Origin: an uncultured delta proteobacterium
Lineage (GTDB): Bacteria; Desulfobacterota; Binatia; UBA9968
Direction of reading: 5' to 3'
NCBI GenBank assembly: GCA_963804165.1
Contig: CAWDPO010000043.1
Coordinates: forward strand, 320,001-384,000
DNA: 64,000 nt
Shown: positions 13,401-56,753 of the stretch, in pieces
How positions within the stretch are numbered: the first letter of the stretch is position 1
How the letters are laid out: each line of letters starts with the position of its first letter
Program-made: the position numbers and the translations under genes
The notes under the pieces: model-generated
Told to the model about the DNA's origin: nothing
Database searches by the model: none
What the model saw: the letters and a program-made list of their open reading frames with translations, nothing else

Positions 13401-13403
13401 TCC

Positions 13404-23398: not shown

Positions 23399-23785
23399 AT
23401 GGTCGAGATGAAAAATCCTATTAAGGAAGCCGACGCGAACCCGGGCGTCAATCACCTGAGCATGTGGAGAACTGATCTTGCATATTATTGGGTGATCAAT
23501 TGCAAAGGGCGGCTTCAGGACGACATGCACTACCATGATAACGATGATCACATCTTCATGTTGCTCGAAGGCGAGTGCACCATTCGCACTCCGCACAAAG
23601 AGTTCGTCCTGAAACAGTTCGATACAGTGCTGCTCCAGTCCGGCGAGCCTTACCAGCTATGCAATACCGGCAACGGGAGAATGTTGCTTCTCGGCGCCGG
23701 CAATTCCGGCGTTGACGGCAAACCGAGAACCCGTGTGCCGAAGATTCCGAGTCACATACCGGTCACAGATCCGATTGTTGCGTGA
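23399..23785 (+). CDS. cupin domain protein
   Basis: MHYHDNDDHIFMLLEGE ... PYQLCNTG. Confidence 0.85.
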   Translation: MVEMKNPIKEADANPGVNHLSMWRTDLAYYWVINCKGRLQDDMHYHDNDDHIFMLLEGECTIRTPHKEFVLKQFDTVLLQSGEPYQLCNTGNGRMLLLGAGNSGVDGKPRTRVPKIPSHIPVTDPIVA

Positions 23786-25029
23786 CGGCGCTAAGATCTG
23801 CGCGCTGACGCGCTAATTCAGCTCGGTATCTACGGCTGACGATCATCAATATGATCGCGGCGATCGCGCAGACCGCGCCGCAAAGGGCGAAGGTCCAATC
23901 CATGCCGATCACGGCGCCCGAGGCGCCGATGATCATGCTGCCCAAGGACCACAGGCCGCGGTCCATGAAAAATAGGCTGAGCACGCGTCCCAGCAGATTG
24001 TCCGGCGTCGCGGTTTGAATCGCGGTGTTGGAGAGAGCGCGCCCGGCGATTTGGCAAAAGCCGATCATCGCCAGAAAGAGGAACGACAAAACAAAGTTGT
24101 GAGAAAAAGCAAACAAGGCGATCGACACGGCAAATCCCAAGGCGCAGAAGCAGATCGAACGGATACCGACGCGAAGCTTGTTCACCGAGGCGAGCACCAG
24201 CGCCGCCACTGTGGCGCCGACACCCGGCGCGGACATCAGTAAACCGAAACCGGACGCGCCGACGTGCAGCACATTGGTGGCGAAGATCGGCACGAATCGG
24301 TTGTACGGCGCGCAGAACGTCGCGATAACGTAAGAAAGCCCGACGATGTAGAGTAGCCGGCGATTGCCGAGCAAATAGAAAAACCCTTCCTTCACGTCGC
24401 CCCAGATACTTTCTCGTCCGCGCGCTTTTCCCAGGGCGGCAACTCCATCTGGTGAAGATTGAAAAGCAGAAACACGAAGCTGATCGCGTTGACCAGAAAA
24501 CAACCGGCGATGCCGACATACGCGATAATCAAGCCTCCCGCCGCCGGTCCGAAAATCTTCGAGAAGTTGAACACCGAAGATTGCAGGCCGATGGCGTTCA
24601 GCAGCTCGTCCTTCGGCACCAGGCTGTTGACCAGCGATTGGCGCGCCGTTTGATTGATCGTATTCACGACCCCAGAAAAAAAGCCAAGACCGCAATGTGC
24701 CAGAGCTCGATGACGTCAAACTGCACCGCGAACCAGTAGATGATCGCCTGGACCATCGCCGCCGTCTGGGTGATCATCAGCACGCGTCTTCGGTCGAATC
24801 GGTCGGCGATGGCGCCGCCGAGCGCGCCGACCAGAAGCCGCGGCAAGGTATCAAAAAACGCCACGACGCCGATGGCGACGGGCGAGCGCGAGACGTGCCA
24901 CACCAGCCAACTCTGCGCCACGTTCTGCATGAAGTCGCCCGAACTGGAGATCAGCGCGCCTTCCATCAAGAGACGAAAGTTTCGATGTCTGAGGGAACGC
25001 AGGGTGCGAAGATTCCGTAGGCTTTGCAT
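23763..25029 (-). CDS. MFS transporter, MFS_3/DUF894-like (frameshift near 24665)
   Basis: SLRHRNFRL, VAQSWLVW, GAIADRFDRRR, TARQSLVNSLVP, LLGRVLS. Confidence 0.88.
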
Positions 25030-25124
25030 GTTCGAGTTGACGACGCGGTTGTTACTTTTTATCTTACGCGACCCGCGTTGCGTTTGAAACCGGCCAGCGC
25101 AAGCACGGCAGCACAGAAGCAAAC

Positions 25125-32235: not shown

Positions 32236-34182
32236 TTAAACTTTGGAATTTTTCTGCTGTTCCTCCAGAAGCCGCTGCGCCTCTTCCTCGGACAGTGATT
32301 CCAATTCCTTCAATAGTGTCGTCAAGTCTTGGGCGTCCAAAGTCTTTCCCTGATGTGCCGTGATCATTGATGCCATTTCCGCAACGGTCGGAGATTCAAA
32401 TAGTGATCGCAGTGGTATCTCTAACTGAAACTGATTGACGACTCGCGACACAACCCGGGTCGCTGTCAGAGAGTGACCTCCAAGGTCCAAGAAATCGTCG
32501 TAGATACCAATGGGACGAACATCAAGCAGATCCTCCCAGATCTGGACCAAACTCTTTTCTATCTCATTTCGCGGCGCAGTATATAACGCGTCAAGTTTCG
32601 GTCGCGCACGATCCGGTTTTGGTAAGGCGCGACGATCCAACTTTCCGTTCGTTAGCGGCAGCGATTCCAAAAACACAAAAGTCGACGGGACCATGTAATC
32701 TGGCAGTTTATTCCTGATAAATTTTTTGAGATCGCTCACATTGAGAACGGAGTTTTGACGCGGGATGACATAACCGACCAGATACTCTTCTCCGAGCTCA
32801 CGGTCCCATGCAGCGACTCCGGCGTCTTTGACCTGAGGATGCGCCAACAATGCTCTCTCAATCTCGCCCAGCTCCACACGGTAGCCACGAATCTTCACCA
32901 TGAGATCTTTTCGTCCCAGGTGGATCACAAATCCGTTGGGCAACATCCGGCCGAGATCGCCGGTCGGATAAATTGAATCGGCTGCGCCCTGTGAGTTCCA
33001 GGTTGTCGAGGATGGACGGTGGAACGGCAGATTAAGGTATCGACTGCGGACGGTGATTTCTCCCGTTTGCCCGGGTTGCGCTATATTTCCATCCTCGTCA
33101 ACTATAAGGACTTCTCTTCCAGGCCGGGGATATCCGACGGGAACGCCCTGTTCCGGGAGCTTGAAGTCTTGATCGATCAGAAACGAAGCGAATGTATGGG
33201 TTTCCGTCGCGCCAATAGAAATTTCGAAGGTCGTCGTGGCTGGGAAATGCATCCTATAGAGTGCGATTTCCACTTTGGATACTGGCGCTCCCGACAAATT
33301 AATCAAACGTAATGCGGGAAATTCTATCCTATGCGAGAGCGATTCCACGAACTGGCGAAAGACTACCGGAGTTGAATGAAAGCAAGTGATTTGCTCGTCA
33401 CGCAACCATGACGGGATCCGATTGATTCCTTCCAAGCTAATGTCGAACGGATGAATCGATGCTCCGTTCAGCAAGGACTGATAAAGGTTTATGTGAGACG
33501 AACCAAAAGCAATAGAATGAAATAGGGTGAGCTTGTCGTCTACGCCAATATTATTTATCTGGCCGTGAACAACGCCGTTAAACACGATATTCTTATGAGG
33601 ACAAACGATACCCTTGGGTTTTCCTGTCGATCCCGAAGTGTATAAAAGGCATGCGGGCTCCTCCGCTCCGACCGAAAGTTCGGGGTTCTCAGAGGCGGTT
33701 GAGTGATCGAGTTGGTCGACATTCAGCAATAGCTTCGAATTTCGAATGTGCGGATTGATAAGCCCCTCACCGCGACTATTCGACAGAAGTAAGCTAGCGC
33801 CAGAGTCCTCCAACATTCGAACTTGTCTTTCCTCGGGAAACGATGGGTCTAAACCCAGGTAGAATTTACCTGCCTTCAATACTCCCAAAATTGCTGGAAG
33901 CATGTCGATTCCATGCTCGAATAACAGGGGTATGGGCTCGCTTGAGGCCCCTCGCTTCGCCAAAACGGCGTGAGCGATCCGATTAGCCGCGCGGTTGAGT
34001 TGATCGTAGGTCAGCGCTCGGTCCCTGTCCTTGACTGCCAATCGCTCCGGATACATGTGCACGATCTTCTCAAACCGCGCCGGGATCGATGTCTCAACGT
34101 CCTCCATGGGTCACTCAACGAACATTCCCCATGGAAGAAAGCACTTGGCCCGTATTGATTGTTGGTCATGCGGCAACTTCAT
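32236..34182 (-). CDS. stand-alone NRPS-like adenylation + carrier (A-PCP) protein; in-frame TGA at 34111-34113
   Basis: YTSGSTGKPKG, GATET, TGDLG, KIRGYRVELGEIE, DFLDLGGHSL. The RBS-preceded ATG at 34182 is in frame with ORF 32236..34107. Confidence 0.9.
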
Positions 34183-34483
34183 AGCACTCCCCTACCTTTC
34201 CCCGATTTGCTCTTCCGCGCATCTTTCTCCTGGTCCTGGGAAGGATTGTAGACGAGTGCATTGCTATACGACAAGACTAGAGGTTAGAGGAAGTCTTATG
34301 GTCTTAACAGAGGGGAACTTAATGGCACATGCGGTAAAGAATAGTCCCATAAACATCGGCGCAGTTGGCAGCGAGAACTCGGTTTACATTAAAAAATACA
34401 ATCGCGCACAGAGTGAGCAAGAACTCTAGATTGAAAATTTCGCTCACAACTTTTCGAAGGCAGTTTACCCAGTTTCGACGCAG

Positions 34484-34549
34484 GATTGAACTAAACGACG
34501 CTTCTGACGAATCTCGTGAGATTCGTTTGAAGGAGAATTCAGTTCAATT
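34484..34549. repeat. dif-like site pair A+B
   Basis: GATTGAACTAAA-CGACGC-TTCTGACGAATC tcgtga GATTCGTTTGAA-GGAGAA-TTCAGTTCAATT. Confidence 0.85.
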
Positions 34550-34554
34550 CCATG

Positions 34555-34647
34555 GTTAAACGTTCGCGTTGAGCGGCACGCCCGCACGGGAGCCCATTGG
34601 CGAGCCACCGCCGCTTCCGGCGCGTCCGCTCCAACGCGGGGTTAGCT
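34555..34647 (-). other. integron attC site
   Basis: Minus strand AGCTAAC-cccgcgttggagcggac ... gccgctcaacgcgaac-GTTTAAC, ~20 bp after the stop of 34667..35182. Confidence 0.85.
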
Positions 34648-34666
34648 GGCACCAGAGCGCCATCGC

Positions 34667-35182
34667 CTATTTTGCGCGTCGAAGGACCAAGTGGACGATT
34701 CCTCCGCCGACAGCCGAAACAGGGCTTATGATCTTTAACTTATCACCCGAGATTTCGATGAGCCGAGACTGATCCTCGCCGTTCCAGTTTGGGTAGGTAC
34801 TCCCATCGTAGTGCAGATTTATCTTCCGTTCTTTCTCGTCGATAGAATACCTGCCGAAATAGGCGATGCTTCCTTGTACGATTGCTTTGTTCTCCTCTGC
34901 AGTCCCCGCCATGCGATTGTTTGAAGCAAACTTCGGCAACGTCCCACGTTGAAGCACCAGGATAAAGCGTCCGTTTGCATCGTATACGACCATGCCTTTT
35001 GGATTAGAGCCGAATGGTTCCAATTTCTTTCCGTCTTGGTCTACGTATTGCGCTACTGCCATCCAAGTACCTACGATTTGCTTGCCTAGCGATTGGGCAG
35101 TCGCCGACACACACAAAAATGTGCTTAGCATAGCCAGTGCAACTGACAAGGTTCCGCGCAAACGGCATTGATACGCCTTCAT
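34667..35182 (-). CDS. lipocalin-like domain secreted protein (gene cassette)
   Basis: Signal peptide; IVGTW, FGSNPKG, SIAYFGRY, STYPNWNG. Confidence 0.85.
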   Translation of the reverse strand: MKAYQCRLRGTLSVALAMLSTFLCVSATAQSLGKQIVGTWMAVAQYVDQDGKKLEPFGSNPKGMVVYDANGRFILVLQRGTLPKFASNNRMAGTAEENKAIVQGSIAYFGRYSIDEKERKINLHYDGSTYPNWNGEDQSRLIEISGDKLKIISPVSAVGGGIVHLVLRRAK

Positions 35183-35228
35183 AGTGCCTCCCTGTTGTTA
35201 AGTAACGACCGTATGACGCCTCCGAGCC

Positions 35229-35272
35229 AGCTAACTATTAAGTGAACTGCCGGCTCTTGCGGCGGGTTATCC
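35229..35272 (-). other. truncated attC / cassette 5' core site
   Basis: Minus strand GGATAAC-ccgccgcaagagccg..cacttaata-GTTAGCT; GTTAGCTGGC is the exact complement of GCCAGCTAAC at the cassette 3' end. Confidence 0.7.
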
Positions 35273-35427
35273 GGGAACCCGAAATCTGAGAAGAGCAAAA
35301 TGAACTGAATATCCGTCAACAAGCCGTGCTTTGTCAATGGTTTCACCCGACAAACGCTGCCCGCGGAGCGGTATATCCAGATATCAGCCCGCGGTGTATC
35401 TTGGCGGATCAACCGAAATCGCCGTAG

Positions 35428-35457
35428 GATTGAACTGAACGACGCTTCAATTCGATC
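35428..35457. repeat. dif-like site A
   Basis: GATTGAACTGAA-CGACGC-TTCAATTCGATC. Confidence 0.85.
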
Positions 35458-35503
35458 TCCATTATCCGTCTTAATCAAAGATGAAAAAGTGAAACCAGCG
35501 ACA

Positions 35504-35560
35504 CGCCTGGAGTCCATCCAGGAGAGGGCCGGGCAGCACGGACCGTGGCGCTCTAAGTGA
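35504..35560. repeat. structured ~57-bp motif, copy 1
   Basis: cgCCTGGAgtccaTCCAGGagagggc...gaccgtggcgctc; homologous to 36461-36519. Confidence 0.75.
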
Positions 35561-35700
35561 CACGGAATTGAGTTGCTAGAGAAGCGGCACAAAGACACTT
35601 TGGCTCAATTAGCGCCGTCCACCACGATTGTTTGGACGGTGCAGGGATCTCGTGAGCAAGTCCGTCCGAGATGGTCTGTCGGTAAAGATTCATCCAGACG

Positions 35701-35886
35701 CTATCGCGATGGATCACTCGGACCGCGCGGATTCCCCGCCGATCCTCTGTCAGCAGGAGAGCTTTTCGAAATCTTCTGCAATTCATCAGCCTTCCTTGTT
35801 GGATCAGCATCATTGCCTCGACAGCTCCCAAGAACAACCGTGGCGCATAGTAGGATGGCGACCGCGAGAAGCGTCTGTTTATGCAT
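35701..35886 (-). CDS. small putative lipoprotein
   Basis: MHKQTLLAVAILLCATVVLGS-C lipobox; GGGGAGG RBS upstream. Confidence 0.7.
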   Translation of the reverse strand: MHKQTLLAVAILLCATVVLGSCRGNDADPTRKADELQKISKSSPADRGSAGNPRGPSDPSR

Positions 35887-36138
35887 AATCTGCCTCCCCT
35901 GTCGAATGATCGATATCGTCCAATTCCGAAACTGAGTTGCCGTTGAGAGAGCTGAGGATAAAACGAGCCTCGCAAATTCAGGAGCTCATCTCATGATGCA
36001 GACCTACGCATGAGAAAGCTTGGGACAACTGCGGCAAGCACTAGTTAACGTGACGAGAATTGTCAAGATGCTGAAAAGACATTTTGTCTTGGACGCGCGG
36101 CCTCTGACGGACAACATCCTCACTGAGATGCTGAGAGG

Positions 36139-36168
36139 GATTGAACTTTAACGAATCTAATTTCAATC
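36139..36168. repeat. dif-like site, variant spacer
   Basis: GATTGAACTTTA-ACGAAT-CTAATTTCAATC. Confidence 0.65.
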
Positions 36169-36206
36169 GTTCACAAACGGCGCGTTTACGCCGTAGGGTC
36201 CTGGCC

Positions 36207-36418
36207 ATGAAAAAAGGATATCAAGGCGACGAACTCTGGAGCGCTGTAAATCCGGCGAGCGGTAAACAAGAATTGGTTGACCCCGAGGGCGAATTCATCC
36301 CGGTGAAACAATCATCAAGCTGTACTATTGGAAACGGCTTGACGGCTATGTGACCGTCCCTGGGGATTCGATGTTCAAAGTCGCGGCCGATGGCTACACG
36401 CTCGAAGCTGTTAGATGA
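36207..36418 (+). CDS. small hypothetical protein (probable frameshift near 36305)
   Basis: MKKGYQGDELWSAVNPASGKQELVDPEGEFIP.. continues as IIKLYYWKRLDGYVTVPGDSMFKVAADGYTLEAVR* in another frame. Confidence 0.4.
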
Positions 36419-36460
36419 GACTTAGCACCAGCAGCCAAACCATCAACAAAGACATCGTTG

Positions 36461-36519
36461 CGCCTGAAGTCCATTCAGGAGAGGGCGGTGTGAATCCGAC
36501 CGTGGCGCTCCAAAGTTGA
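36461..36519. repeat. structured ~57-bp motif, copy 2
   Basis: cgCCTGAAgtccaTTCAGGagagggc...gaccgtggcgctc. Confidence 0.75.
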
Positions 36520-36539
36520 TTCAGCGCTAGATACCGAAG

Positions 36540-37520
36540 CTACTGGAACCGTAAGAGACCAGCCTTTGCGCATTCGTCTGCAACGGTCAAATACCGCTTT
36601 ATGCTGTCAGTTCCAACAACATACGGATGCCGATCCTCGGCTTTTCGTTTTGATAACGCTGGCAGCTTCACCTTGCTCCCGTCGTAGATGGTATGGTTGG
36701 AAAGAAGAACATCGGCACCCGCTTTTTCCACAATCTCCCCTAAGCGGCGGGCGGAGTTGCTGTAGGTTTCAAACCAAAAACTATTCGGCTTGCCTCGATA
36801 TTCCGCTCCGCCTCTTAGCCAATTGAACGCAGTACCTCCAACCTCAACAGCGAGGTGACGCTTTCCTCCGTCCTTTACCGGGATAAGAGTTGAGATCGTG
36901 CCTAGCGTATGTCCAGGGGTCTTGTACATCGTCAGTGTCGTGTCGCCAAGCGTGAGCTTCTGTCCGTCAACAGCGACCATATCGCGCTTGGGCTTTGGCC
37001 ATGGCTGCGTATTGCGGCTCATTGCGTCCCAGTCTTCTTCGGCAAGAATGACCCGCGCACCGAAACGATCCTGGAGATACTTTGCTCCACCCGCGTGATC
37101 GATGTGACCATGACTGACAATCACATACTTGATCGAAACCAGATCAAAGCCGAGCTTTTTCAATCCGGCGACGATCTCATCCTCCACTGAGTAGTCAAAT
37201 AAGGCATCCACGATGATGATGCCTTCTGAGGTAGTCACGGCCCAGGCCGAGTGCTCCGCCTGTCCGACAAAGTAAAGATTATCGAAAACTTTTACCGGTT
37301 CGGCGTACCAACTCGAACGATTTGGAGGCCCGGATGGCGGGCGAGCCGTCGTAGCCGGCGTGCACACCGTCTTGAATAAAGCGAGATACTCCTGACCAGC
37401 AGCCTCTCGCGCTTTAGCTACATGAGCATCAGCTGTATCGGAAAACTGAGCAGCAGAGTTGACTGAGACACAATACACCGTAAGACCCAGAGCCAGAACG
37501 ACTATAATCCAAAATCGCAT
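36540..37520 (-). CDS. secreted metallo-beta-lactamase-fold hydrolase, subclass B3-like
   Basis: Signal peptide; PVKVFDNLYFVG, SHGHIDHAGG, TPGHTLG, LSNH. Confidence 0.85.
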   Translation of the reverse strand: MRFWIIVVLALGLTVYCVSVNSAAQFSDTADAHVAKAREAAGQEYLALFKTVCTPATTARPPSGPPNRSSWYAEPVKVFDNLYFVGQAEHSAWAVTTSEGIIIVDALFDYSVEDEIVAGLKKLGFDLVSIKYVIVSHGHIDHAGGAKYLQDRFGARVILAEEDWDAMSRNTQPWPKPKRDMVAVDGQKLTLGDTTLTMYKTPGHTLGTISTLIPVKDGGKRHLAVEVGGTAFNWLRGGAEYRGKPNSFWFETYSNSARRLGEIVEKAGADVLLSNHTIYDGSKVKLPALSKRKAEDRHPYVVGTDSIKRYLTVADECAKAGLLRFQ

Positions 37521-37651
37521 CGGCGTTCTCCTTTTGCTCTCAGACGTGTGAAGAAATCAAATCCTAATGGTTGGGTGTCTGACCAACGAACTCGCGGCTC
37601 CGGACGGTTTACCTTCGTGATGAATGGCTTGTCAATATGTCCACGCCCTCA

Positions 37652-37719
37652 GATTGAACTTAACGACGCCTCGGTTCGATGAGTTCCAAGATTGGCTCGT
37701 AGGAGAATTCAGTTCAATC
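37652..37719. repeat. dif-like site pair A+B
   Basis: GATTGAACTTAA-CGACGC-CTCGGTTCGATG agttccaa GATTGGCTCGTA-GGAGAA-TTCAGTTCAATC. Confidence 0.85.
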
Positions 37720-37774
37720 CTGGTTGTTTTCACGTCTGAAACCGATCTGAAAAATCGCCTCGATAAGAACGAAT

Positions 37775-38773
37775 CTACTTGATCACCCTATCCGCCCGCG
37801 CGAGCACGTTCGGTGGAATCGTCACGCCGATCTGCTTGGCAGTCTTCAGATTAATTATCAGCTCAAACTTCGTCGGTTGTTCGACCGGCAAGTCGGCTGG
37901 CTTCGTTCCCTTGAGAATCTTGTCGACGTACGTGGCAGCGCGACGGAGCAGGTCGGCAAAGTTCGGTCCATAGGCCATGAGTCCCCCAGCCTTCTCCGCA
38001 TGCTCTCTTGTGTCATAAACCAGCGGCAGCCGGTTTTTTGCCGCGAAGTCTGCGATTTGTCTTCCGTAGGTAAGGACCGTTGGGTTTGGCACCATAAGAG
38101 CGCCCGGCCGTTCCCGAATCGCGGCCTCGAAAGCACTCGCTAGCTCTGTGGGATTTCGGACCTCCAGGGATTGAAGGGTAATCGCCAATGCCTGGGCCGC
38201 ACTCTGCACCTCTTTGAATCTGATTCTGTTGGCCGAATTAGCCGGATCCCAGATGAAGGCTACTCGTGTGACGTTCGGCAATATTTCTTTGAGCAGTTCC
38301 AATCGTTTTCCATCTAAGTCAGGGGACAGAGTGGTCAACCCCGTAATATTCCCACCTGGCCGTGCGAAGCTAGCGACGAGTCCGACGGCAACCGGATCTG
38401 CTACCTCTGCCATGACAATGGGGATAGTGCTGGTCGTGTTCTTAACGGCCTGGATCGCTGGTGTAGTTCCCGTAACGATCACGTCAACTTTAAGCTGGAG
38501 CAGCTCGGACGCGAGCACGGGCAACCGATCGCTTTTTCCCTCAGTGTAGCGATACTCAATGATGATGTTCTGTCCCTCAACATAGCCAAGTTCCCGCAGA
38601 CCTTGCCGGAATGCCTCGATACGGGCTGAGTAAGAGGAAGGGGAGCCGGGAACTAGAAAACCTACGAGCGGGACTTTCTTCGGCTGCTGCGCCTCGGCTA
38701 TGACCGCAACAGCAAGCAGCACCACTACAAACAGGATTGATAAGATCCAAGCTTTCCTCATTGCACACATCAT
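37775..38773 (-). CDS. ABC_sub_bind-type substrate-binding protein, paralog 1
   Basis: AEAQQP, GLRELGYVEGQNI, DPVAVGLVASFARPGGNITG, DLPVEQPTKFEL, LARADRVIK. Confidence 0.92.
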   Translation of the reverse strand: MMCAMRKAWILSILFVVVLLAVAVIAEAQQPKKVPLVGFLVPGSPSSYSARIEAFRQGLRELGYVEGQNIIIEYRYTEGKSDRLPVLASELLQLKVDVIVTGTTPAIQAVKNTTSTIPIVMAEVADPVAVGLVASFARPGGNITGLTTLSPDLDGKRLELLKEILPNVTRVAFIWDPANSANRIRFKEVQSAAQALAITLQSLEVRNPTELASAFEAAIRERPGALMVPNPTVLTYGRQIADFAAKNRLPLVYDTREHAEKAGGLMAYGPNFADLLRRAATYVDKILKGTKPADLPVEQPTKFELIINLKTAKQIGVTIPPNVLARADRVIK

Positions 38774-38873
38774 TTGTTATGTATCACGCGGGCGGTAGTA
38801 GAAAAAGGTAAGATTTACGACGGAAGACGACAGGTATTCGTCGAGCGGAAACACAAATTTTTAGCGTAAGTAA

Positions 38874-38939
38874 GATTGAACTGAACGACGCGTCAGACAA
38901 ACCTTGCGAGATTGAGTCGTAGGAGAATTCAGTTCAATC
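38874..38939. repeat. dif-like site pair A+B
   Basis: GATTGAACTGAA-CGACGC-GTCAGACAAACC ttgcga GATTGAGTCGTA-GGAGAA-TTCAGTTCAATC. Confidence 0.85.
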
Positions 38940-38966
38940 CTAGCATCGCCGCTTCTCTTTCTTTGC

Positions 38967-39974
38967 TCACTTGATCACTTTGTCCGCTCTCGCCAGCACA
39001 TTCGGCGGAATCGTCAGGCCGATTTGCTTAGCGGTTTTCAGGTTGACGATGAACTCAAATTTCTTTGGCTGCTCGACGGGAAGATCGGAGGGTTTGGCGC
39101 CCTTAAGGATCTTGTCCACAAGAACGGCGGCGCGTCTGTAGGGTTCGATCCGGTCTGTTCCGTAGGACATGAAGCCGCCGAGCTCCACAAAATCTGCCAG
39201 ACCGGCTATTGCCGGTAGGCGATTTTTTATCGCCAGGCTTATGATTTGGTTTTGATTATTAGCGATCAACCCGCCTCCCGTCACGAAGAGAGCGCCGCTC
39301 CGTGCCTTCACTGCATCTCTGAACCCGCTCTCGATATCGTTGGCGCTGCTTACCGCCATGGAATGAAGTTGTAGACTGAGTTCCTTTGCTGGCGGTTGGC
39401 TTTCTTTCCATACTTGCGTCGAGCCCGGATTCTGCGAATGCCACAGCACTGCAACGCGGGAGAGCTTGGGAATAGTCTCCTTGAGTAACTCCAGCAGTTT
39501 GCCCGCTAACACCCCGCCAATCGAAGTGAAGCCTGTGATATTGCCCCCAGGCGACGCCAAGCTGTCAACCAACCCAAGCGAAACGGGATCGGATACCGTT
39601 CCCAGAAAGACGATGGGAATCGTCCTAGTAGCGTTTTTCGCGGCTCGGGTGTCATTTGCCCCCGGCGTGACGATCACGTCAACCTTGAGCCGAACCAACT
39701 CAGCAGCAAGGGACCGAAGACGGTCGAGATTGTGCTCTGCGTATCGGAACTCGAAAGCTATATTCTTGCCTTCGACATAGCCGAGTTTGAGAAACTCTCG
39801 CCGAAATGATTCGAGCCTAGCCGAAGGGGAACTGGCTCCTCCGAGAATTCCAATTATCGGTATTTTCGCCGGCTGCTGCGCCTCGGCGACGACTGCAGCG
39901 GCGAGCAGGAACACTACAAGCAGGATTGAAAAGACCGGTTTCCTCATTGCACACATGCATTCGCTATGTATCAC
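38967..39974 (-). CDS. ABC_sub_bind-type substrate-binding protein, paralog 2 (start uncertain)
   Basis: Same motifs as paralog 1. Confidence 0.92.
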   Translation of the reverse strand: MIHSECMCAMRKPVFSILLVVFLLAAAVVAEAQQPAKIPIIGILGGASSPSARLESFRREFLKLGYVEGKNIAFEFRYAEHNLDRLRSLAAELVRLKVDVIVTPGANDTRAAKNATRTIPIVFLGTVSDPVSLGLVDSLASPGGNITGFTSIGGVLAGKLLELLKETIPKLSRVAVLWHSQNPGSTQVWKESQPPAKELSLQLHSMAVSSANDIESGFRDAVKARSGALFVTGGGLIANNQNQIISLAIKNRLPAIAGLADFVELGGFMSYGTDRIEPYRRAAVLVDKILKGAKPSDLPVEQPKKFEFIVNLKTAKQIGLTIPPNVLARADKVIK

Positions 39975-40054
39975 GGGGGCGGTAGAAGAGAAAAGTGAGA
40001 TTTACGTAGAAAGGCGGCAAGGATTCGTTGAATAGGAAACCCGAATCAGCCTGA

Positions 40055-40084
40055 GATTGAACTGAACGACGCTTCAGTTCGATC
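40055..40084. repeat. dif-like site A (near-perfect palindrome)
   Basis: GATTGAACTGAA-CGACGC-TTCAGTTCGATC. Confidence 0.85.
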
Positions 40085-40264
40085 AATCTGCTAGGGCTTG
40101 AGTATTTATTAGTAATTGGAGTCAGATGGGCCACCGTAATATAGAAAATCTATATCTTCAGTTTTTGCACGAACCAAACAGCCCCAAGGGTGAGGACCAA
40201 CACGTTTCCGTTTCGGACAGATGAAGGCGGATAGTTCTGGCAAAGTTGTGACAAAGTAAGTCGA

Positions 40265-40645
40265 TTACCCATCAACTTTAGCGATTAATCGTTCTACTTC
40301 CCCGAGAAATTCTTTCAGGTTGAGCGGCTTGGTCTGATAACCGTCGAATCCTTCCGCCAACATCGTTTGTCTGTTGTGTGTCATCGCCGATGCCGTGATG
40401 GCGACAATCGGTATGCGGTTAGTTTTCGGCGCAGCCTTGAGCTGCTTCATCGCCGTGATGCCGTCCATACCAAGGAGCTGGATGTCCATCAGGATCAGAG
40501 CGGGAGTTTTTTCCTCTGCGAGCTTTAGGCCGTCCTCGGCGGTCTCGGTGTCGATAGTTTGATAGCCCTTGACCTGAAGTAAGTCACGAATGAGCTTACG
40601 ATTTTTCTCATTGTCCTCAATGATCAGTATTAGTTCGTTGGCCAT
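40265..40645 (-). CDS. single-domain response regulator (DivK/CheY-like)
   Basis: ILIIEDN, LILMDIQL, AITASA, GFDGYQTKP. Confidence 0.93.
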   Translation of the reverse strand: MANELILIIEDNEKNRKLIRDLLQVKGYQTIDTETAEDGLKLAEEKTPALILMDIQLLGMDGITAMKQLKAAPKTNRIPIVAITASAMTHNRQTMLAEGFDGYQTKPLNLKEFLGEVERLIAKVDG

Positions 40646-43600
40646 CAAATTTCTCTTGGTTGAGCGGCAGAGTAAAAGTGAATGTACTGCCCTTGCCGAC
40701 TGCGCTTTCCACCCAAATCTTCCCGCCATGCAGTTCGACAAACTTCCGAGTGAGGGTTAATCCGAGTCCCGTCCCTTCGCGTTTTTTGGAATAATCGGTG
40801 CCCACCTGACGAAACTCTTCAAAGATCGTCTCTTGGTTTTCCGGGGCGATGCCGCTCCCCGTGTCGCTCACGGAGATCTCTACCGCTCCGTTGGTGAGCG
40901 CGGCATCGACGTCGATACGTCCACCTTCCTCAGTAAACTTGACTGCATTCGATAAGAGATTCAAAAGAATTTGCTTGAACTTTCTCTCGTCACCGATGAC
41001 CTCGCCCAACCGCTCGTCTACGGTATGCCGTAGCATGACACCGTGCCGTGTCGCCCGTTCTCGTATGAGAATCAGCGCGTTGTCGATCGCAGTTGGTATG
41101 TCAAACTTCGTCAGATCCAATTCCATCCGCCCCGCCTCGACTTTGGACAGATCCAGAATATCGTTGATCAGCGAAAGAAGATGGCGCCCTGAGGAGACGA
41201 TATCGTCCATATACTCGTTCTGCTTGTCGTTCAGTTCGCCGAACAGCTTCTCCGAGAGCACTTCCGAGAATCCGATGATAGCGGTCAATGGCGTGCGCAG
41301 CTCGTGGGACATGTTGGCAAGAAATTCTGATTTATGCCGGTTAGCCGTCTCAATCTCACGGCTTTTGTCCTCGATCTCACGAAACAACCGGGCATTTTGG
41401 ATCGCGAGGGCGGACTGAGTCGCAAACGTCTGAAGCAGATTCACAATTTCCGGTTCGAAGTTTCCAGCCTGCTTCCGCCAAACGGTTAGACCTCCCATGA
41501 TTTGCTGTTCGCGGAAAAGCGGGATCGACAGAAGAGATCGATATCCCAGCCGCGTAAGCATCGGCCGCACTCTCGTCCCGGTGTATTCACGCTGATCTAA
41601 GATATCCGGGACCTGGACTGGCGCGCGTGTCGTTACCGCTTGTCCTGTAACACCTTCACCCAAGCGTATCGGCGCTGCCCGAAGCGCATCGACCACTTCT
41701 TCTTCCATCCGGTGGCTCGCTCTCAGATGAAACTCTTGAGTTGATTCATCGTATTCGTAAATGACGCCGCAATCGGTTCCGGAAAGTTGGACGGCGTGAG
41801 CAACAATAGTGGCGAGAACCGTTTCGAGATCCAGAGTGGAGCTGACCGCTTGACCGACTTCGCCTAAGGCTTTGAATTCCCCAACGGATCGAGCCAACTC
41901 GCTTGTCCGCTCTTCGAGTTCTTGAAACAGCCGACGTTCTCGATGGCGATCACCGCTTGGTCGGCGAAGGTTTCGAGCAGCTTGATCTGCGCCGCGGTGA
42001 AGGGGCGTACCTCGGTGCGACGTGCGATCAGTAGCCCCAATGAGTTCCCCTTGCTGGCGAAGGGGAACGCCTAAAAGGTGCGCCAGTTCGCTGACGGAAC
42101 CCAACTATTGGGATAATCGTTCTGCTGCGCGGCAGGTCGGGAATGTGCAGCGTCCCATGCTCGCGCATCCAGCGGATGACTGTCGGCTCATCGATACTGA
42201 TCTCGACCCGCCCAGCTGGGTATGGATATCGGACCAAAATGAGCCCGCGAAACCAGTAGCGTTTCCCTCGCGGAGCCGCAGTCACCACGTCATCAATCCC
42301 ACAAACCCGGGCGGCGCTCTCGACGATGGCGTCGAGCACCGGCTGCACGTCCGTGGGCGAGCGGCTGATGATGCCGAGCACCTCGGCTGGTTGCGGTCTG
42401 ATGCTCCAGCGCTTCGCGCAACTCGCGTTGCGCTCTTGCAGTTCCTTGAAACAGCCGCACGTTCTCGATGGCGATCACGGCTTGAGTCGGCAAAGGTTTC
42501 AAGAAGCTTGATCTGCTCGTCTGTGAAAGGACGAACTTCCAGCCGGCGGATCGTTGATCACTCCGATAGGCACTCCCTCGCGCAAGAGCGGTGCGGCCAA
42601 TATCGTTCGAATGCCTGGCGCTCCGTGAAGCTCACACGCTCAGGAAAATCTTTTGCGACCACTGCGGCTAGATCCTCAATGTGAATCATCCGTCGCTCGA
42701 GCAACCGCAGCGACCAATGACTGACTGCCATCGATGCTGAAATCAACGCAGCTTCCACGGCTGATGGCAGCCGTAATGCGCCGCGTGTCTGAAAGCATCA
42801 TCTCCTTCGACGTAGTCGAATCGTTGCGTCCTCCGCGTCACACACCCGCGCGGCGTTTTCCGCGACCACATCCAGCACCGGATGGATATCCGTCGGCGAG
42901 CTGGCGATGACACCCAGGATCTCAGCTCGTCGCCGTCTTGCTGCTCCAACGATTCCTTGAGTTCTTTGAACAGACCGCACGTTCTCGATGGCGATCACCG
43001 CCTGGTCGGCGAAGGTTTCGAGAAGTTTGATCTGCGCCGGAGTGAAGGGGCGCACCTCGATGCGTCGCGCTTCCAGATTCGTCCAATGAATTCCTCTTGC
43101 TGAACGAAGCGGAGTGGACAAGTAACGTGCGAAACCCGCTGACCAGCACCCAATCTCGGGAAATCGTTCTGCGCAGCACGGACATCGGTGAACGTGGAGC
43201 GTGCCATGCTCGCGTATCCAGCGAAACCATGGCCCATCAATACTGATCGTCGACCCGCCCAGCAGGTATGGATATCGGACCAAAATGAGCCCGGGCGACC
43301 ATACTTTCTCCCTCCCGGAGTCGCAGCATTACATCATCAATTCCGCAAACCCGTGCTGCACTCTCGACGATGGCGTCGAGGACCGGCTGCACGTCGGTCG
43401 GCGAGCGGCTGATGATCCCGAGCACCTCGGACGTCGCGGTCTGATGCTCCAGGGCTTCGCGCAATTCCGCATTGCGCTCGCCGAGCTCTTTGAACAACCG
43501 CACGTTCTCGATGGCGATCACGGCTTGATCCGCGAAGGTCTTCGAGCAGGGCGACCTGCTTGTCGTGCAAACGGTCGTACCTCTGTCCGGCGGATCATGA

Positions 43601-45686
43601 TGGCGCCGACGGGGAATCCCTCTCGCAATAGCGGAACCGCCAGCAACGTCCGAATACGCCAGCCGCTCGTCGGTGCGCCTGACCTCGGCGTAGTCCTCGT
43701 CTAGCACGGCCAGGCTGTCGTGGATGTGGACGGGCTCGCGCTGGAGAATGGCTCGGCCAATCAGCCAGCTGCGATCGATCGGGCGAGTCTCGCCGACCGC
43801 AAGTATTGGGGAGACCACCCCATAGCTTGCTACCTTCCGCAGGTTGTCGCCCTCAACCCGATAAATCTGCGCGTCACTCGAATCACATAATCGGGCCGCA
43901 TTTTCGGCCACAGTGTCGAGTACCGGCTGGATATCGGTCGGCGAGCTAGCGATGACGCCCAGGATCTCACTGGTCGCAGTCTGTTGCTCCAACGCCTCCT
44001 GTGGAGTTCTTGGAACAACCGCACGTTCTCGATGGCGATCACGGATTGGGAAGCGAACGTTTCGAGAAGCTTGATCTGCTTCTCTGTGAACGGGCGAACC
44101 TCTTTACGGCGGATATGAATCGTCCCGATAGGAATTCCCTCGCGCATCAACGGCGTGGAAAGCATTGTCCTGACACCGAGACTTCTAGCGTACGTTGCTG
44201 GAAAGTCATTCTCTGCCAATGCTGCCAAGTCATGAATATGAAGAGTTCGCAGATCTATCACGGTTCGGCCGGGTACGGAGTCGCGATCCATTGGCACGAG
44301 CCGACCCTCACCCCGCCGTGTCGGCAGCGACCCGTAGTTGGCCACCGATAGAAGCTTGTCGCCATCAATGCGATGAATCACGGCGTCGGTTGCGTCGCAC
44401 AGTCGCGCTGCATTCTCCGCCACTATATCCAGCACTGGCTGTACGTCGGTCGGTGAGCTGGCGATCACGCCCAAGATTTCACTGGTAGCCGTCTGCTGTT
44501 CCAACGCCTCTTTAAGTTCTTGGAACAGCCGAACGTTTTCGATAGCAATCACCGCCTGATCAGCGAAAGTCTCCAGCAACTTGATCTGCACGGGGGTGAA
44601 GGGGCGCACCTCAATGCGACGCGCGTTCATCGTTCCAATGAGTTCTCCATGTTGGCGAAGTGGGACGATCAGGAAAGTACGTGACCGAGCGCCGGCTGAG
44701 GAACCCAGTGTGGGAAAGTCGGTTTGCTGCGCGCGGATATCGGGTATATGGAGCGTGCCATGCTCGCGAATCCAGCCAAAATGCACCTCATCAAGACTGA
44801 TTTTCAGCCGGCCAGGGGCTATTGCCACAGGACCAAAATGAGCCCGTGCAACCATCGCGTTCATTTCAATCAGTCGGAGGACCACGTCATCAACCCCACA
44901 AACCCGCGCAGCACTCTCGACGATTGCGTTCAGCACCGGTTGCACATCCGTCGGCGAGCGGCTGATGATACGGAGCACCTCGGACGTCGCAGTCTGATGC
45001 TCCAGAGCCTCGCGAAGTTCCGAATTAGATGATTCCAGCTCAGTGGTCTTTTGTGTGAGTTCTTGAAATAGCCGAGAATTCTCGATCGCGATCACCGCCT
45101 GGTCAGCAAAGATTTCCAATAGTTTGATTTGTCGTTCTGAGAAAGGACGAACTTCCGGACGGCGGATGAGGATCGCTCCGATGGGAACACCCTGTCTAAG
45201 CAACGGTGTTGCGAGTGCAGTCCTATTGCCGTGGCGCTGAGCAAGTTCCCGTGCCCGTGGATACTCTGATACTGGGGTATTGAAGATGTCATGAATATGG
45301 ATCGTTTGTCTGTCCAGCATCGATCGTCCCGCGAGTGTGCCCCGGTCAAGCGGGACATGCTCCTGGCGGGGATTGACAGAAACGGGACCGTAGGATGCGA
45401 TAACCCCCTGCCCGTCGTCATGAAGACGGAGTATTTGCGCGTCGATAGAATCGCACAACCGCGCTGCACGCTCGGCAATCGCGTCGAGTAAAGACTGAAG
45501 ATCCGCTGGTGCCTTGGCAATCATCCGCAGGATGTCGCTGGTGGCTGTCTCCCGTTCGAGTAACTCGTCGCGCTCGCGCCGCAATGACTGAATATTTTCC
45601 GCTTGTTTCGGCTGAGACTTTTTCACCACAGACCGGCGCGGTTTTGCCTTTTTACTTTTAGAGCCCTTTTGGGTCGTGGTTGCCAT
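40617..45686 (-). CDS. cytoplasmic sensor histidine kinase with about 8 GAF domains (frameshifts 41.9-44.0 kb)
   Basis: Repeated [19 protein letters not shown]; [14 protein letters not shown]-box, [16 protein letters not shown]. Confidence 0.92.
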
Positions 45687-45826
45687 AAACGAAGACCGAA
45701 ACGGAGATGCTGGTCGGGGAGAATCTGGAAAAATGTCAGGATTACGCTGCAGCAACACGCTCCCCCAGCGCCTGAAGCTGACTTTTACTTCAGGTGGCTG
45801 GTGGCGTCAACGAAGAAGGTCAAGTT

Positions 45827-45853
45827 TGCGGCTTGGTAGGAGAAGATTCAATC
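45827..45853. repeat. degenerate dif-like site B
   Basis: TGCGGCTTGGTA-GGAGAA-gaTTCAATC (right arm 3 nt short). Confidence 0.45.
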
Positions 45854-45892
45854 CGAAATCCGTCGCTGACGCAAAGACACAAAAATCGCCAG

Positions 45893-45922
45893 GATTGAAC
45901 TGAACGACGCCTCTGGGCAACG
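45893..45922. repeat. dif-like site A at the right boundary of the island
   Basis: GATTGAACTGAA-CGACGC-CTCTGGGCAACG. Confidence 0.85.
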
Positions 45923-46064
45923 CCACTGAGCTCGATTAAATGCAAGCGCGACTGTCAGCGCGCATCTAGGAAGCGTTGCTGACGTAACCGAAAACATCTC
46001 GAACCTAGAAAACGCCCGGCTCTGCTATCAAGTTGACATCATTGACACCGTCAGATAGTCAACG

Positions 46065-47468
46065 ATGGCAAAGCTGAAGGAGCCGGTCGTAACGATGCCC
46101 AAAGACCTCCGCAGTTTCATCGCCCAACTCGAATCCAAATATCCCGAAGAAGTCGCCCGGGTGAGGAAACCGATCTCGCCCCGTTACGAGATCACGGCTT
46201 TGCTAACTCAGTTGGAAAAAGCAAGCGTTTTCCGCTGCTGTTCTGTGAGAACGTCGAAGGCAGCGATGCGCCGGTCGTCATCAATGTGCAAGCGAGCCGA
46301 AAGCTCATGGCGTTGGCACTGGAGTGTAAGCCTGAAGAATTCGCCGCCAAGTTCGCCGAACGCCAGAGTAAACCGATCGCGCCGGTGGAAGTGACCGATG
46401 GGCCGGTCCAGGAAATCGTCAATCTCGGCGATGATGTGGATCTGACAAAAGTGCCGCTGCTCACGCACTACGACGTCAACGCCGCGCCCTTATATCACGG
46501 CGGGCATCGTCGTCGCTGCCGATCCCGACAGCGGCGTCAGAAACACCAGCTATAACCGACTGATGATGGCGCGCAAACGCGAGCTGCGCATTTTCATGGC
46601 CATCGGCCGCCATCTCTGGACGCTGCACAACAAAATGGAGCGGCGCAGCGAGCCGCTCCCCATCGCTATCGTCGTCGGCGTGCATCCATTGTTCTCACTC
46701 GGCGCCCAAGCGTTTACGCCGTCGACGGACGACGAGTACGCCGTCATCGGCGGCATGATGGGCGAAGCCTTGCGCGTGGTGCAAGCGAAGACAGTACCGA
46801 TTTTGGTTCCTGCCGACGCGGAGATGATGATCGAAGGCAAGATCCTGCCCAACGTCCGGCGCGAGGAGGGACCGTTCGGCGAATTCACCGGCCACGCGGT
46901 AGCCAAAGACGATCGCCAGGTCATCGAAGTCACCGCGATCACGCACCGGAAAAACTATATTTTCCAAGACGTCCACGCGGGCTACACCGAGCATAAGCTG
47001 ATGGGCGCAGTGCCGCGCGAAGCCGCGCTGATCAAAGCCGTGCGCCAAACCGTGCCGACGGTGAAAAATGTCTGCATGCCGGTGTCGGGCAACTGCCGCT
47101 TTCATGCCTATATTTCGATTGCCAAGCGCACGCCGGGTCAGGCCAAGAACGCCATCTGCGCCGCCTTCGCCTCCGACATGCTGCTGAAGCACGTGATCAT
47201 CGTCGACGACGACATCGACGTCTTCGATGAAGAACAGGTGCTCTGGGCGGTATCGAACCGCTTTCAAGCCGATCAAGGCTTGGTCGTAATTGCCAATGCG
47301 CAAGGAAGCGAGCTGGATCCCTCCGCCGGCCCCGGCGGCGTCAACGCCAAGATGGGCCTGGATGCGACCAAACCGCTCACAGGTTTTGCTCCTGAGCTGA
47401 GAGTGCCCGAAGAAGTAATGAGGAAGATTCGACTCGAAGATTTCTTACCGAAATTCGCTAAAAAGTAG
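46065..47468 (+). CDS. UbiD-family decarboxylase (frameshifted)
   Basis: KDLRSFI, VDLTKVP, EEGPFGEFTG, VDDDIDVFD, GLDATKP. Confidence 0.92.
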
Positions 47469-47520: not shown

Positions 47521-48496
47521 TTATTCCAACGAAAAGTTTGTGCCGACTTTTCGCTCCAACGCCCAGCGATAAGCCCAAGCGGTTGCTGTCGTGTCCCAGA
47601 TCGACATACCGACGGACTCGAAGACGATCGTCTGGTCAGCTTCGTTCGCGCGGGAATTTTCCCCAGACATCACGTCGCCCAGTTCGCCCGCGATTTGCGC
47701 GGCCGACCAAGTGCCATCAGCGATCATCGCCACGTAGGGCTGGCGCGGCGCTTCGCCGCCGAGCACTTCTTCTTTCCAAGACACAATCACGCGCGAGTTC
47801 GCGACCGTCTCGCGCGGCAGCTGCCCACTGGTGATCGAAACGACCAGCGCGCCCGGCGCGATCCATGCCGGCTCGATCACTGTCGAACGCGAACTGGTCG
47901 CCAGGCTGACGATCGGAGCGTTTTCCACGGCCGCCGTGGATCCGTCGACGGCTTCGACATCGATGCTCGAGCCAATCGCTCATCTCCTTGGCGAAACACT
48001 CGCGATGTTCTTCCGTCGGGCTGAAAACTTTTACCTTCTTCAACGAACTGGCAGCGCCCGGCGGATGGCGAGAATCTGGCCGCGCGCTTGGCGGCCGCTG
48101 CCGATCAGTCCGAGCGTATCCGCTCCTTTAGGCGCGAGGTATTTGCTCGCCACGCCGGCCGGCGCGCCGGTGCGCCAGACATTCAGCGCAGCGCCGGCGA
48201 CCAGCGCCAGCAAATCGCCGCGCTCGCCGTCGAAAGAGAAGATAAAATAGGCGTCCTTGGCGCCGCGAAACAGCGCGCTGATGCGCATGCCCTGCCCTGC
48301 CCGCGGCACGGCGGAAGTCGTGATGCGATATTTTTTCTGACGATCGATCAGACTGGTTTCCAGGCGCACCTGGCCGGCGACCGCGTCGCTGTTAAACGCG
48401 CGCATCGAGTCTTCGATGCGGTCGAGTAGACCGTCCATTGCCACCGGGTCGCTGTACAGCGGCGCTAGGTCTTTTTCGCTGAGCAATGAGCGGCAT
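47521..48496 (-). CDS. ornithine cyclodeaminase / mu-crystallin family protein (frameshifted)
   Basis: WRTGAPAGVA, GLIGSGRQA, FESVGMSIWD. Confidence 0.85.
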
Positions 48497-56504: not shown

Positions 56505-56753
56505 ATGGAGCAGATCGCTAGAACCTCAAAGCAGATCGGAGCCGCTATTCGCCGGTGTCGCCGTGCCGCTGGTCTGTCTCAAGCCCAGCTTGGAGCCAAA
56601 ACCAATTTGCGCCAAGCAACAATATCAGCCCTTGAGCACGGCGAGCCGGGCACCGAGCTGCGAACCCTCACGGATGCGATGACTGCGCTCGGCCTTGAAA
56701 TGGTCGTCCGCGAGCGTTCGAAAGCACCAGCTGCCATCGAGGATCTGTTCTGA
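56505..56753 (+). CDS. hipB: HipB-like XRE antitoxin
   Basis: GLSQAQLGAKTNLRQATISALEHG HTH; overlaps the hipA start. Confidence 0.92.
   Translation: MEQIARTSKQIGAAIRRCRRAAGLSQAQLGAKTNLRQATISALEHGEPGTELRTLTDAMTALGLEMVVRERSKAPAAIEDLF

Follow-up and report, generated by a model that had tools for sequence, protein, structure and literature searches.

Gene-cassette systems that are run by tyrosine recombinases are a main bacterial route by which accessory genes are collected and reshuffled, and both integrons and dif modules are well described. In the dif modules of Acinetobacter Rep_3 plasmids, as set out in the available portion of PMC13141974, the pdif (XerC/XerD) sites consist of two recombinase-binding arms and a 6-bp spacer, with one arm well conserved and the other variable; the sites are inversely oriented and alternate, and two module types are distinguished by the arm that faces inward. 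The same portion describes units of two modules between directly oriented pdif sites of the same spacer as excisable, and some modules as carrying no open reading frame (ORF). Rearrangements in dif modules centre on sites whose spacers are identical or nearly so. The attC site of integrons is presented in the accessible part of PMC8946536 as an imperfect palindrome of the order R''-L''...L'-R' in which the central spacer stays unpaired, some bases are extrahelical, and the terminal structure varies. The bottom strand of attC is recombined preferentially. Integron integrases possess a specific extra domain and retain a double-strand, Xer-like activity (accessible part of PMC4792948), and this retained activity makes an element offering both kinds of substrate of interest. 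In the CTX attP(+), two opposed Xer-type sites about 90 nt apart form a 150-nt hairpin on the single strand of a filamentous phage, which is used by the host XerCD (available portion of PMC3089051). Here, doublets of two short sites, named A and B, were analyzed in a 64,000-nt stretch of DNA from an uncultured delta proteobacterium of the class Binatia (assembly GCA_963804165.1, contig CAWDPO010000043.1, positions 320,001–384,000), which is referred to as the window, together with the same sites in other genomes.

The A+B doublets are read here as junctions in a mobile gene-module array that is run by a site-specific tyrosine recombinase, with a probability of roughly 0.65. The doublet itself is best read as a junction at which two core recombination sites of opposite orientation enclose an empty slot, similar to that of dif modules, rather than as an integron attC. 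The A core GATTGAACTNAACGACGC occurred six times in the window, always on the plus strand (34484, 35428, 37652, 38874, 40055, and 45893), where shuffled sequences are expected to give 0.04 copies; the six copies were clustered in 11.4 kb, and the other 52 kb of the window contained none. The B core GGAGAATTCAGTTCAATC occurred three times (34532, 37702, and 38922), compared to 0.07 copies expected from shuffles. When the halves were read as 30-mers, the three doublets had gaps of 6, 8, and 6 nt and lengths of 66, 68, and 66 nt, which agrees with the positions, the 6/8/6-bp spacing, and the 66–68-nt lengths reported in the initial annotation of this DNA, made from the sequence alone. That annotation had offered three explanations of the doublets, and the first of them, empty intervening modules, was the best supported, as the same A-to-B slot was filled with 137–2856 bp in 11 of the 53 distinct A-to-B transitions found elsewhere.

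Both the A half and the B half are imperfect palindromes of 12-6-12 layout, a plan of two arms and a 6-bp spacer that is followed by the 101 A sites and 90 B sites collected. The A site consists of a conserved arm, GATTGAACTGAA, the spacer CGACGC, and a degenerate arm with the consensus TTCAGTTCAATC; the B site begins with a degenerate arm (consensus GATTGGGTTGAT), followed by the spacer GGAGAA and a conserved arm, TTCAGTTCAATC. The arm profiles of these sites revealed that the degenerate arm of A corresponds to the consensus of B's conserved arm and that the degenerate arm of B is similar to A's conserved arm. From these profiles, the doublet can be read as two inverted core-type sites with their weak arms toward each other. 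CGACGC faced GGAGAA in all three window doublets. The spacer CGACGC was present in 93/101 A sites, a count that is biased since the A spacer was part of the scan pattern, and GGAGAA was present in 83/90 B sites; B was not in the scan pattern, and its sites were called at three or fewer mismatches to an 18-mer containing GGAGAA.

The same sites were searched for in genome contigs using the pattern GATTGAACTNAACGACGCNTC with 10-kb flanks, which returned 60 rows (59 loci, cited below by L numbers) in 31 assemblies; both A and B were present in 19 of these assemblies. By our own estimate, about 4 chance matches are expected for 19 specified bases in the contig collection, and a few isolated A-only matches in G+C-rich contigs, such as L021 and L047, are probably of this kind. 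Most of the assemblies were labelled as 'uncultured delta proteobacterium' or Candidatus Binatia, and some as Pyrinomonadaceae, Blastocatellia, Verrucomicrobiia, or Syntrophobacteraceae. This seeming distribution of the arrays across phyla is not trusted, because most such contigs are short (2–8 kb for most, up to approximately 27 kb) and because L027, labelled Pyrinomonadaceae, and L032, labelled Binatia, were 99.4% identical over 5772 bp; this near-identity represents either a very recent transfer or mis-binning, the latter being more likely. The G+C content was 51–58% in all array loci. Several arrays could be found per genome: assembly CAVUVW carried eight non-overlapping loci on six contigs, after exclusion of the eight overlapping loci that are left out of the locus map (L010, L013, L036, L048, L049, L053, L056, and L059).

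Analysis of 142 distinct transitions between neighbouring sites revealed 61 B-to-A, 53 A-to-B, 17 B-to-B, and 11 A-to-A transitions, so that A and B alternated in 114. The A-to-B gap was 3–10 bp in 42 of the 53 cases (8 bp in 18 and 6 bp in 11), and the longer fills included a tyrosine recombinase gene, a serpin gene, and non-coding DNA. The B-to-A slots measured 608–6693 bp with a mode of about 1.1 kb and mostly contained one gene each. The longest ORF in 45 B-to-A slots of 400–1700 bp was located on the strand opposite to A in 38, on the same strand in six, and was absent from one. The commonest cargo belonged to the family PF04392, which formed a cluster of 58 ORFs from 15 assemblies (window counted) and included both window genes of this family. 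Pfam annotation of 42 further slot ORFs indicated TENA/THI-4, SnoaL-like, DOPA dioxygenase, methyltransferase, cupin, MgtC, serpin, and other families, with 12 ORFs lacking a family. GAF kinases were also recurrent as slot content (a cluster of 23 ORFs in eight assemblies, window counted). At L058 (14242–15500, oriented), A and B were 1187 bp apart with a gene of 311 amino acids and no known family between them, and the weak arms were still nearly complementary (10 Watson-Crick pairs and one G-T pair of 12); this arrangement gives the impression of a once tight doublet whose loop received a gene. A SAM riboswitch (RF00162, 77.9 bits) at L050 17798–17910 had no relation to the sites. The doublet was absent from the plasmid collection searched.

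A cluster of tyrosine recombinase ORFs carrying PF00589 and a SAM-like N-terminal domain could be identified in the arrays using Pfam; a regular expression for tyrosine-recombinase motifs tried before had given no match, being too strict (it demanded GH, and the proteins have NH). Four copies were located in an A-to-B slot in three assemblies: one in L003, two in L028, and one, frameshifted, in L052/L053. Each copy ends with its stop codon within the degenerate arm of A and has B immediately ahead of its start, so the slot holding the recombinase gene in these arrays is the one that measures 6–8 bp in the window. The copies of L003 and L028 shared 80% identity. The best NCBIfam models were XerC, XerD, and XerA at 180–205 bits, all under their curated cut-offs, and the nearest solved structure was XerD (1a0p, 1.5e-37), with a colinear alignment of residues 11–295 to residues 6–285; the match to the IntI4 structure reached 5.8e-6. 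The integron integrase model TIGR02249 covered only about 60 C-terminal residues of the array recombinase, with 65–67 bits against a cut-off of 265, and the part of this model that would contain the integron-integrase extra domain had no match in it. A large metagenome protein set contained more than 100 clusters with 65–96% identity to the recombinase, typically 301 amino acids long and mostly from contigs of 1–5 kb. Because these relatives carry only the names XerC or XerD, the system is probably widespread and overlooked. In the plasmid collection, the closest relative of the recombinase had 34% identity.

A fifth member of the recombinase cluster, at L009, was a different protein with 32% identity to the array recombinase; it adjoins IS91-type transposase genes and gave a partial, N-terminal match to the integron integrase (168 bits, cut-off 265). 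The IS91-type element with this tyrosine recombinase of its own lies within an array slot (L009 14067–16366, oriented), and its Y2 transposase with a zinc-binding domain is split into two ORFs. Just upstream of the start of the array recombinase, an inverted repeat, CTCCTCTCCC…AGAGGGAGGAG, could be observed (L003 about 5216–5290, L028, and L052; oriented). Such a repeat would sequester the ribosome-binding site in the mRNA, which hints at translational control of the recombinase. A similar inverted-repeat remnant, with no recombinase gene, was present ahead of a B site at L031.

Sequence comparisons also placed junctions at the sites, whose spacers are nearly invariant, with three near-identical segments starting at B and flank classes switching at A; these are comparisons and not observed reactions. 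The left end of the 5772-bp stretch common to L027 and L032 falls within B and is preceded by unrelated DNA. Within CAVUVW, a 917-bp duplication (98.3%) is perfectly identical from the spacer of B onward while the preceding weak arms and loop differ, and a 1241-bp duplication (96.9%) begins at the end of the weak arm of B. One left-flank class, …CGCGGACCCGTAG followed by the conserved arm and CGACGC, continues into five different right (weak) arms. Hence A alone and B alone each mark junctions. At the edges of the arrays, the outward arm is poor: the first B is mostly preceded by a decayed A half, and the right arm of the last A has little beyond the TCA of the consensus. Such poor edge arms would be expected if units had been inserted into chromosomal pseudo-sites with the crossover at the spacer of A. 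Crossover mapping was limited to pairs with at least 96.9% identity; mapping with the diverged binding-protein modules (65–87% identity) was uninformative, as their conserved sites align anyway.

In the arrays, cargo genes sit between the conserved arms (B to A), and the degenerate-arm slot (A to B), usually 3–10 bp, can take DNA instead, the gene of the Xer-like recombinase included. In the model proposed, the recombinase, acting in trans in the case of the window, would recombine A with A and B with B, which may lead to excision, insertion, and reshuffling of units consisting of one cargo gene and one doublet. The differing spacers would prevent recombination between A and B and the resulting inversion, and the array of the window may be served in trans or be idle at present.

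Several observations weigh against this array reading. The transitions did not alternate in 28 of 142 cases, although some of these conceal decayed sites. The gap was exactly 6 or 8 bp in 29 of the 53 A-to-B transitions even though the sequences differ; an empty slot should drift in length, and the fixed gap hints that the doublet is selected as a unit. The recombinase was found within 10 kb of the sites in only 3 of the 31 assemblies, where the 10-kb flanks would hide genes farther away, and action in trans was therefore assumed. The 64-kb window contained no member of the recombinase family among 71 ORFs scanned for the tyrosine-recombinase domain PF00589, and tblastn with the array recombinase was also empty. 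No circular or empty-site form was observed, with no empty-site allele among the loci searched with the flanks of the window array, and the crossover points were deduced from comparisons. The best case, the L027/L032 pair, also shows extra spacer and arm differences beyond a simple exchange.

The principal alternative concerns the substrate. The hairpin potential of the doublet arises because two inverted sites lie side by side, and the initial annotation had suggested that the doublet is a single site recognized as folded single-stranded DNA. As developed here, it would be one compound site resembling attC and the forked hairpin of CTX attP(+): the plus strand would fold, the conserved arms would pair with each other and the degenerate arms likewise, and the spacers would form a bubble, so that the whole mimics one core site; one strand would then be exchanged with a double-stranded A or B, and replication would complete the process. 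This alternative can coexist with the array reading, the substrate being the sole difference; we consider it possible but do not favour it. In its favour, conservation of the two spacers without complementarity recalls an unpaired central spacer, gaps of 6 and 8 are the most frequent, and B sites at the left of arrays nearly always retain a remnant of A. The A–B spacing was narrow in the 42 tight transitions, whereas 137–2856 bp occupied the slot in the other 11. Within the window, the hairpin with a 6x6 bubble was confirmed for the doublet at 34484 only. Its inner arms form 10 Watson-Crick pairs and one G-T pair of 12, and the proposed structure had a folding energy of -13.9 kcal/mol (z -3.7), with 0/200 shuffles as good. 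The doublet at 37652 has five Watson-Crick and three G-T pairs of 12, and its fold was no better than shuffles (z -1.7, 12/200); that at 38874 has four Watson-Crick pairs and one G-T pair of 12, at or below the partner-shuffled mean of 5.3, and its z of -3.4 comes from pairing of ACGAC in the A spacer region with GTCGT in the B inner arm and not from the 6x6 bubble. Two of the three window doublets thus lack good inner pairing. The covariation of the inner arms, which the initial annotation had proposed to check in related genomes, was evaluated with 45 distinct doublets, of which two with five mismatches in B were dropped; the remaining 43 had inner lengths of 27–38 nt (32 nt in 19 and 30 nt in 12). 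Counting G-T pairs, 89.1% of cells in the outer 12-bp stem and 73.7% in the inner stem were paired, compared to 17–50% when the partners were slid by 1–3 columns. Inner Watson-Crick cells numbered 255/516 against 231 +/- 7 with shuffled partners (1/2000 as high), and inner-arm subfamilies keep their pairing through two-sided changes (ACAAATC/GATTTGT vs TGTG/TGCG). Cells changed on both sides amounted to 56 against 29.2 +/- 4.4 in shuffles (0/500 as high), where kinship among the sequences can exceed every shuffle even when no structure exists. Two measures that are more robust to such kinship gave no significant result: 11 pairs changed on both sides vs 9.1 (54/500 as high) and 36 further pair types vs 32.6 (40/500 as high). 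The signal of covariation is consequently weak, and the mean inner pairing was just 5.9 Watson-Crick pairs of 12. Compared with the pattern that the initial annotation had named as refuting, absent covariation together with widely variable spacing, the doublets take an intermediate position. A strand bias was suggested by 109 G-T cells against 20 A-C cells, but shuffled partners gave 110 and 23, and the excess therefore reflects column composition and not partner choice. The plus strand, antisense to the cargo, folded better than the minus strand in 32 of the 43 doublets, which follows the same strand logic as the attC bottom strand (accessible part of PMC8946536). Real doublets gained only 0.6 kcal/mol over chimeras when folded as DNA on the plus strand (-9.61 vs -8.98 kcal/mol, p = 0.054; minus strand, p = 0.11). 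Tight doublets paired slightly better than long-slot pairs (8.4 vs 6.9 of 12 including G-T, n = 41 and 11). No covariation was seen between the conserved arms of one doublet (10.04 vs 10.07 of 12), between the arms flanking one cargo (10.04 vs 10.05), or within A (7.03 vs 6.98), and within B it was borderline (7.13 vs 6.98, 52/2000). A folded site of the attC kind is also opposed by the Xer-like nature of the recombinase, which does not match the extra-domain part of integron integrases, and by the junctions that A and B mark singly.

An ordinary integron remnant, that is, an attC cluster without its integrase and with a classical integrase elsewhere in the genome, would account for single-gene cassettes, for the palindromic site downstream of each gene, and for the shared gene orientation, and an imperfect palindrome of two 'simple sites' with an unpaired spacer is the attC plan (PMC8946536, in the part available). 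We regard such a remnant as very improbable, as no integron integrase was present among the 71 window ORFs and no recombinase other than the Xer-like one is found repeatedly within the arrays. The separate arrays of CAVUVW and the marking of junctions by A alone and B alone also argue against it, and the partial integrase match at L009 belongs to the different protein beside the IS91-type genes. Hairpin-forming REP doublets are a known class of sequence, and the doublets might be REP/REPIN-like palindromes, or RNA hairpins that terminate transcription of minus-strand genes or stabilise their mRNA at the 3' end, with no role in recombination. The doublets do lie 28–118 nt downstream of minus-strand stop codons and possess a 12-bp perfect stem. 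However, none of the five terminator-like sites in a terminator/promoter scan coincided with a doublet and no T run was present; the sites are confined to cargo-bracketing arrays and not scattered, they end near-identical segments, and the tyrosine recombinase gene holds a fixed position among them, which makes this explanation highly unlikely. The search of Rfam with window positions 33500–47000 (E up to 1) gave no match to a doublet and only a weak sucC match inside the lipocalin gene, and in seven loci its single match was the SAM riboswitch mentioned above. Pfam or NCBIfam annotation of 116 ORFs, compared to a total of about 2800 in the loci, revealed no Y1 transposase. The 6-bp end sequences of Tn916-type elements differ between insertions and are derived from the previous flank. 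The suggestion that the two spacers are coupling sequences of this type was rejected, because the 6-mers of the A and B sites are nearly invariant from insertion to insertion.

The array of the window, from 34484 to 45922, reads as a single array of the order A B [lipocalin] A [about 1 kb] (B) [metallo-beta-lactamase] A B [substrate-binding protein] A B [substrate-binding protein] A [regulator and kinase, 5.7 kb] B' [38 bp] A, if the decayed A, the V'-like remnant, and the decayed B that were read by eye are counted in. Every gene between the window sites is on the minus strand, and all sites are on the plus strand. The left edge is formed by site A1 (34484–34513), with the conserved arm GATTGAACTAAA, CGACGC, and the degenerate arm TTCTGACGAATC, followed 6 nt later by site B1 (34520–34549), with the degenerate arm GATTCGTTTGAA, GGAGAA, and the conserved arm TTCAGTTCAATT; together they make up doublet 1 (34484–34549). 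The B-to-A slot that follows contains a lipocalin-like cargo gene of 171 amino acids (PF13924; 34667–35182). Site A2 (35428–35457) is followed by a slot of approximately 1 kb, which contains a small minus-strand ORF, a decayed A-like site (36139–36169, plus strand; read by eye, without a statistic), and two copies of a conserved motif. A metallo-beta-lactamase-fold gene of 326 amino acids (36540–37520) lies to the left of site A3 in a cargo-type position, with a V'-like remnant of the expected B just below it (about 36512–36540, read by eye). Core matches at site A3 (37652–37681) and, 8 nt past it, site B2 (37690–37719) form doublet 2 (37652–37719). The next cargo is an ABC_sub_bind substrate-binding protein of 332 amino acids (PF04392; 37775–38773), the family commonest in these arrays. 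Doublet 3 (38874–38939) consists of site A4 (38874–38903), also a core match, and site B3 (38910–38939), 6 nt past A4, and is followed by a second ABC_sub_bind protein of 335 amino acids (38967–39974), a paralogue of the first. The slot after site A5 (40055–40084) measures 5.7 kb and encodes a response regulator and, in fragments, a GAF histidine kinase (40265–45758). A decayed B-like site (45827–45854, plus strand; GGAGAA followed by a shortened conserved arm, read by eye) and, 38 nt past it, site A6 (45893–45922), with an exact conserved arm and spacer and an off-consensus right arm, form the right edge.

The single near-palindromic A sites at 35428 and 40055 had been proposed in the initial annotation as a partner or product form of the doublet. 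They do not constitute a separate form and are A sites that precede long slots, their B having decayed; they are the copies with the weak arm closest to the consensus, and A5 at 40055, the best palindrome, folds alone at -7.2 kcal/mol (z -3.2). The sixth A at 45893, the decayed B at 45827–45854, and the decayed A at 36139–36169 had been missed.

A few further features of the window were recorded. The conserved motif in the slot after A2, about 50 nt long (CCTGGAGTCCATCCAGG…GGCAGCACGGACCGTGGCGC) and always on the plus strand, occurs at 35504–35556 and 36461–36513 and also in L002, L006/L012, L027, L046, and L051, the last with four copies in tandem. Most copies lie 35–62 nt past an A or 46–79 nt ahead of a B, whereas for the second copy of the window the distance to any called site is at least about 1 kb. 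The motif had no Rfam match and may serve as an accessory site, encode a small RNA, or mark a third type of junction. Direct repeats of about 520 bp reported by a repeat finder at 41900–45000 are the GAF-domain repeats of the histidine-kinase gene, which is broken into the ORFs 40617–42104, 42798–43283, 43237–43992, and 43830–45758. Other window genes are likewise split into adjacent ORFs (11483–14599, 23763–25122, 46065–47468, and 47521–48486), namely hydantoinase B in four and an MFS transporter, UbiD, and ornithine cyclodeaminase in two each, as are several locus genes, recombinase copies included; either assembly frameshift errors or widespread pseudogenes would explain them. A promoter-like site (TTGACA, 18 nt, GATATT) at 35337–35308 on the minus strand lies in a cargo slot upstream of the lipocalin gene, and the cargo may carry its own promoter, a weak indication since the scan gave fewer such sites than shuffles. 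Outside the array, a HipA-type kinase toxin gene and a separate PF21716 gene ('probable addiction module antidote protein') were present at 56753–58075 and 61361–61663.

If the array reading is true, it describes a gene-cassette platform outside the clinical world, offers a possible explanation for the multiplication of orphan binding-protein genes in soil genomes, and supplies a simple new pair of recombinase and site to test as a tool. It would also permit a direct test of how a double-strand Xer site could become a folded single-strand site, since a single element displays both options. A bolder and rather doubtful proposal is that the arrays represent a third gene-cassette platform beside integrons and dif modules, in which a single array-borne Xer-like recombinase moves one-gene cassettes by way of compact single-stranded hairpin sites, either as an independent Xer-based counterpart of attC or as a step from Xer to attC. 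Equally tentative is the form this platform would take, with an attachment site of two inverted core sites 3–10 nt apart and a conserved unpaired spacer bubble; such a platform would be spread among soil bacteria and would multiply their substrate-binding-protein genes. No published description of such a cassette system was found, judging from titles and abstract openings, and a literature search with the arm 12-mers gave one chance primer match.

REPIN/REP doublets, which go with RAYT transposases and are dispersed without cargo, share with the present doublets two short inverted palindromic units capable of forming a hairpin. Here, unlike in that class, the units form gene-bracketing arrays with two conserved spacers and an Xer-type recombinase. 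The CTX attP(+) resembles the doublets in that opposed Xer-type sites of the same strand are able to pair with each other, giving a hairpin with a recombination site, and an Xer-family enzyme is involved in both; in CTX, the host completes the single strand exchange. In contrast to CTX, the sites are 3–10 nt apart in chromosomal arrays with their own recombinase, and no phage gene or single-stranded replicon was found among the ORFs scanned (window and Pfam-scanned locus ORFs).

Integrons are the closest in the look of the array and the plan of the site. Both consist mostly of single-gene cassettes that share an orientation, and behind every cassette stands an imperfect palindrome of two inverted box pairs with an unpaired spacer; in both, conservation is higher in the outer boxes than in the inner boxes, and the better-folding strand is antisense to the cargo. 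Unlike those of integrons, the arms of the arrays are 12 bp long and conserved in sequence, the central variable part is only 3–10 nt, and no defined extrahelical bases are evident. The recombinase is Xer-like and falls short of the integron-integrase model, no platform of attI plus intI was seen, several arrays occur per genome, and half-sites mark junctions singly. Membership among the integrons fails on the integrase.

The dif-module system is the closest working model. Two features, the XerC/XerD pair and the plasmid context, exclude the arrays from membership in it. The two arms of the array sites share one consensus, suggesting a single recombinase, in contrast to the separate XerC and XerD arms of dif modules; a dedicated Xer-like recombinase rides in a module, and the host XerC/XerD pair is unneeded. 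Also unlike dif modules, each orientation of the array sites has its own fixed spacer, most degenerate-arm modules measure only 3–10 bp, and the cargo has a strong orientation bias. The arrays occur on long chromosomal contigs of uncultured soil bacteria, with no doublet and no close recombinase in the plasmid collection searched. Both systems nevertheless share sites of two arms, one of them better conserved, and a 6-bp spacer, their inverted and alternating arrangement, and two types of module.

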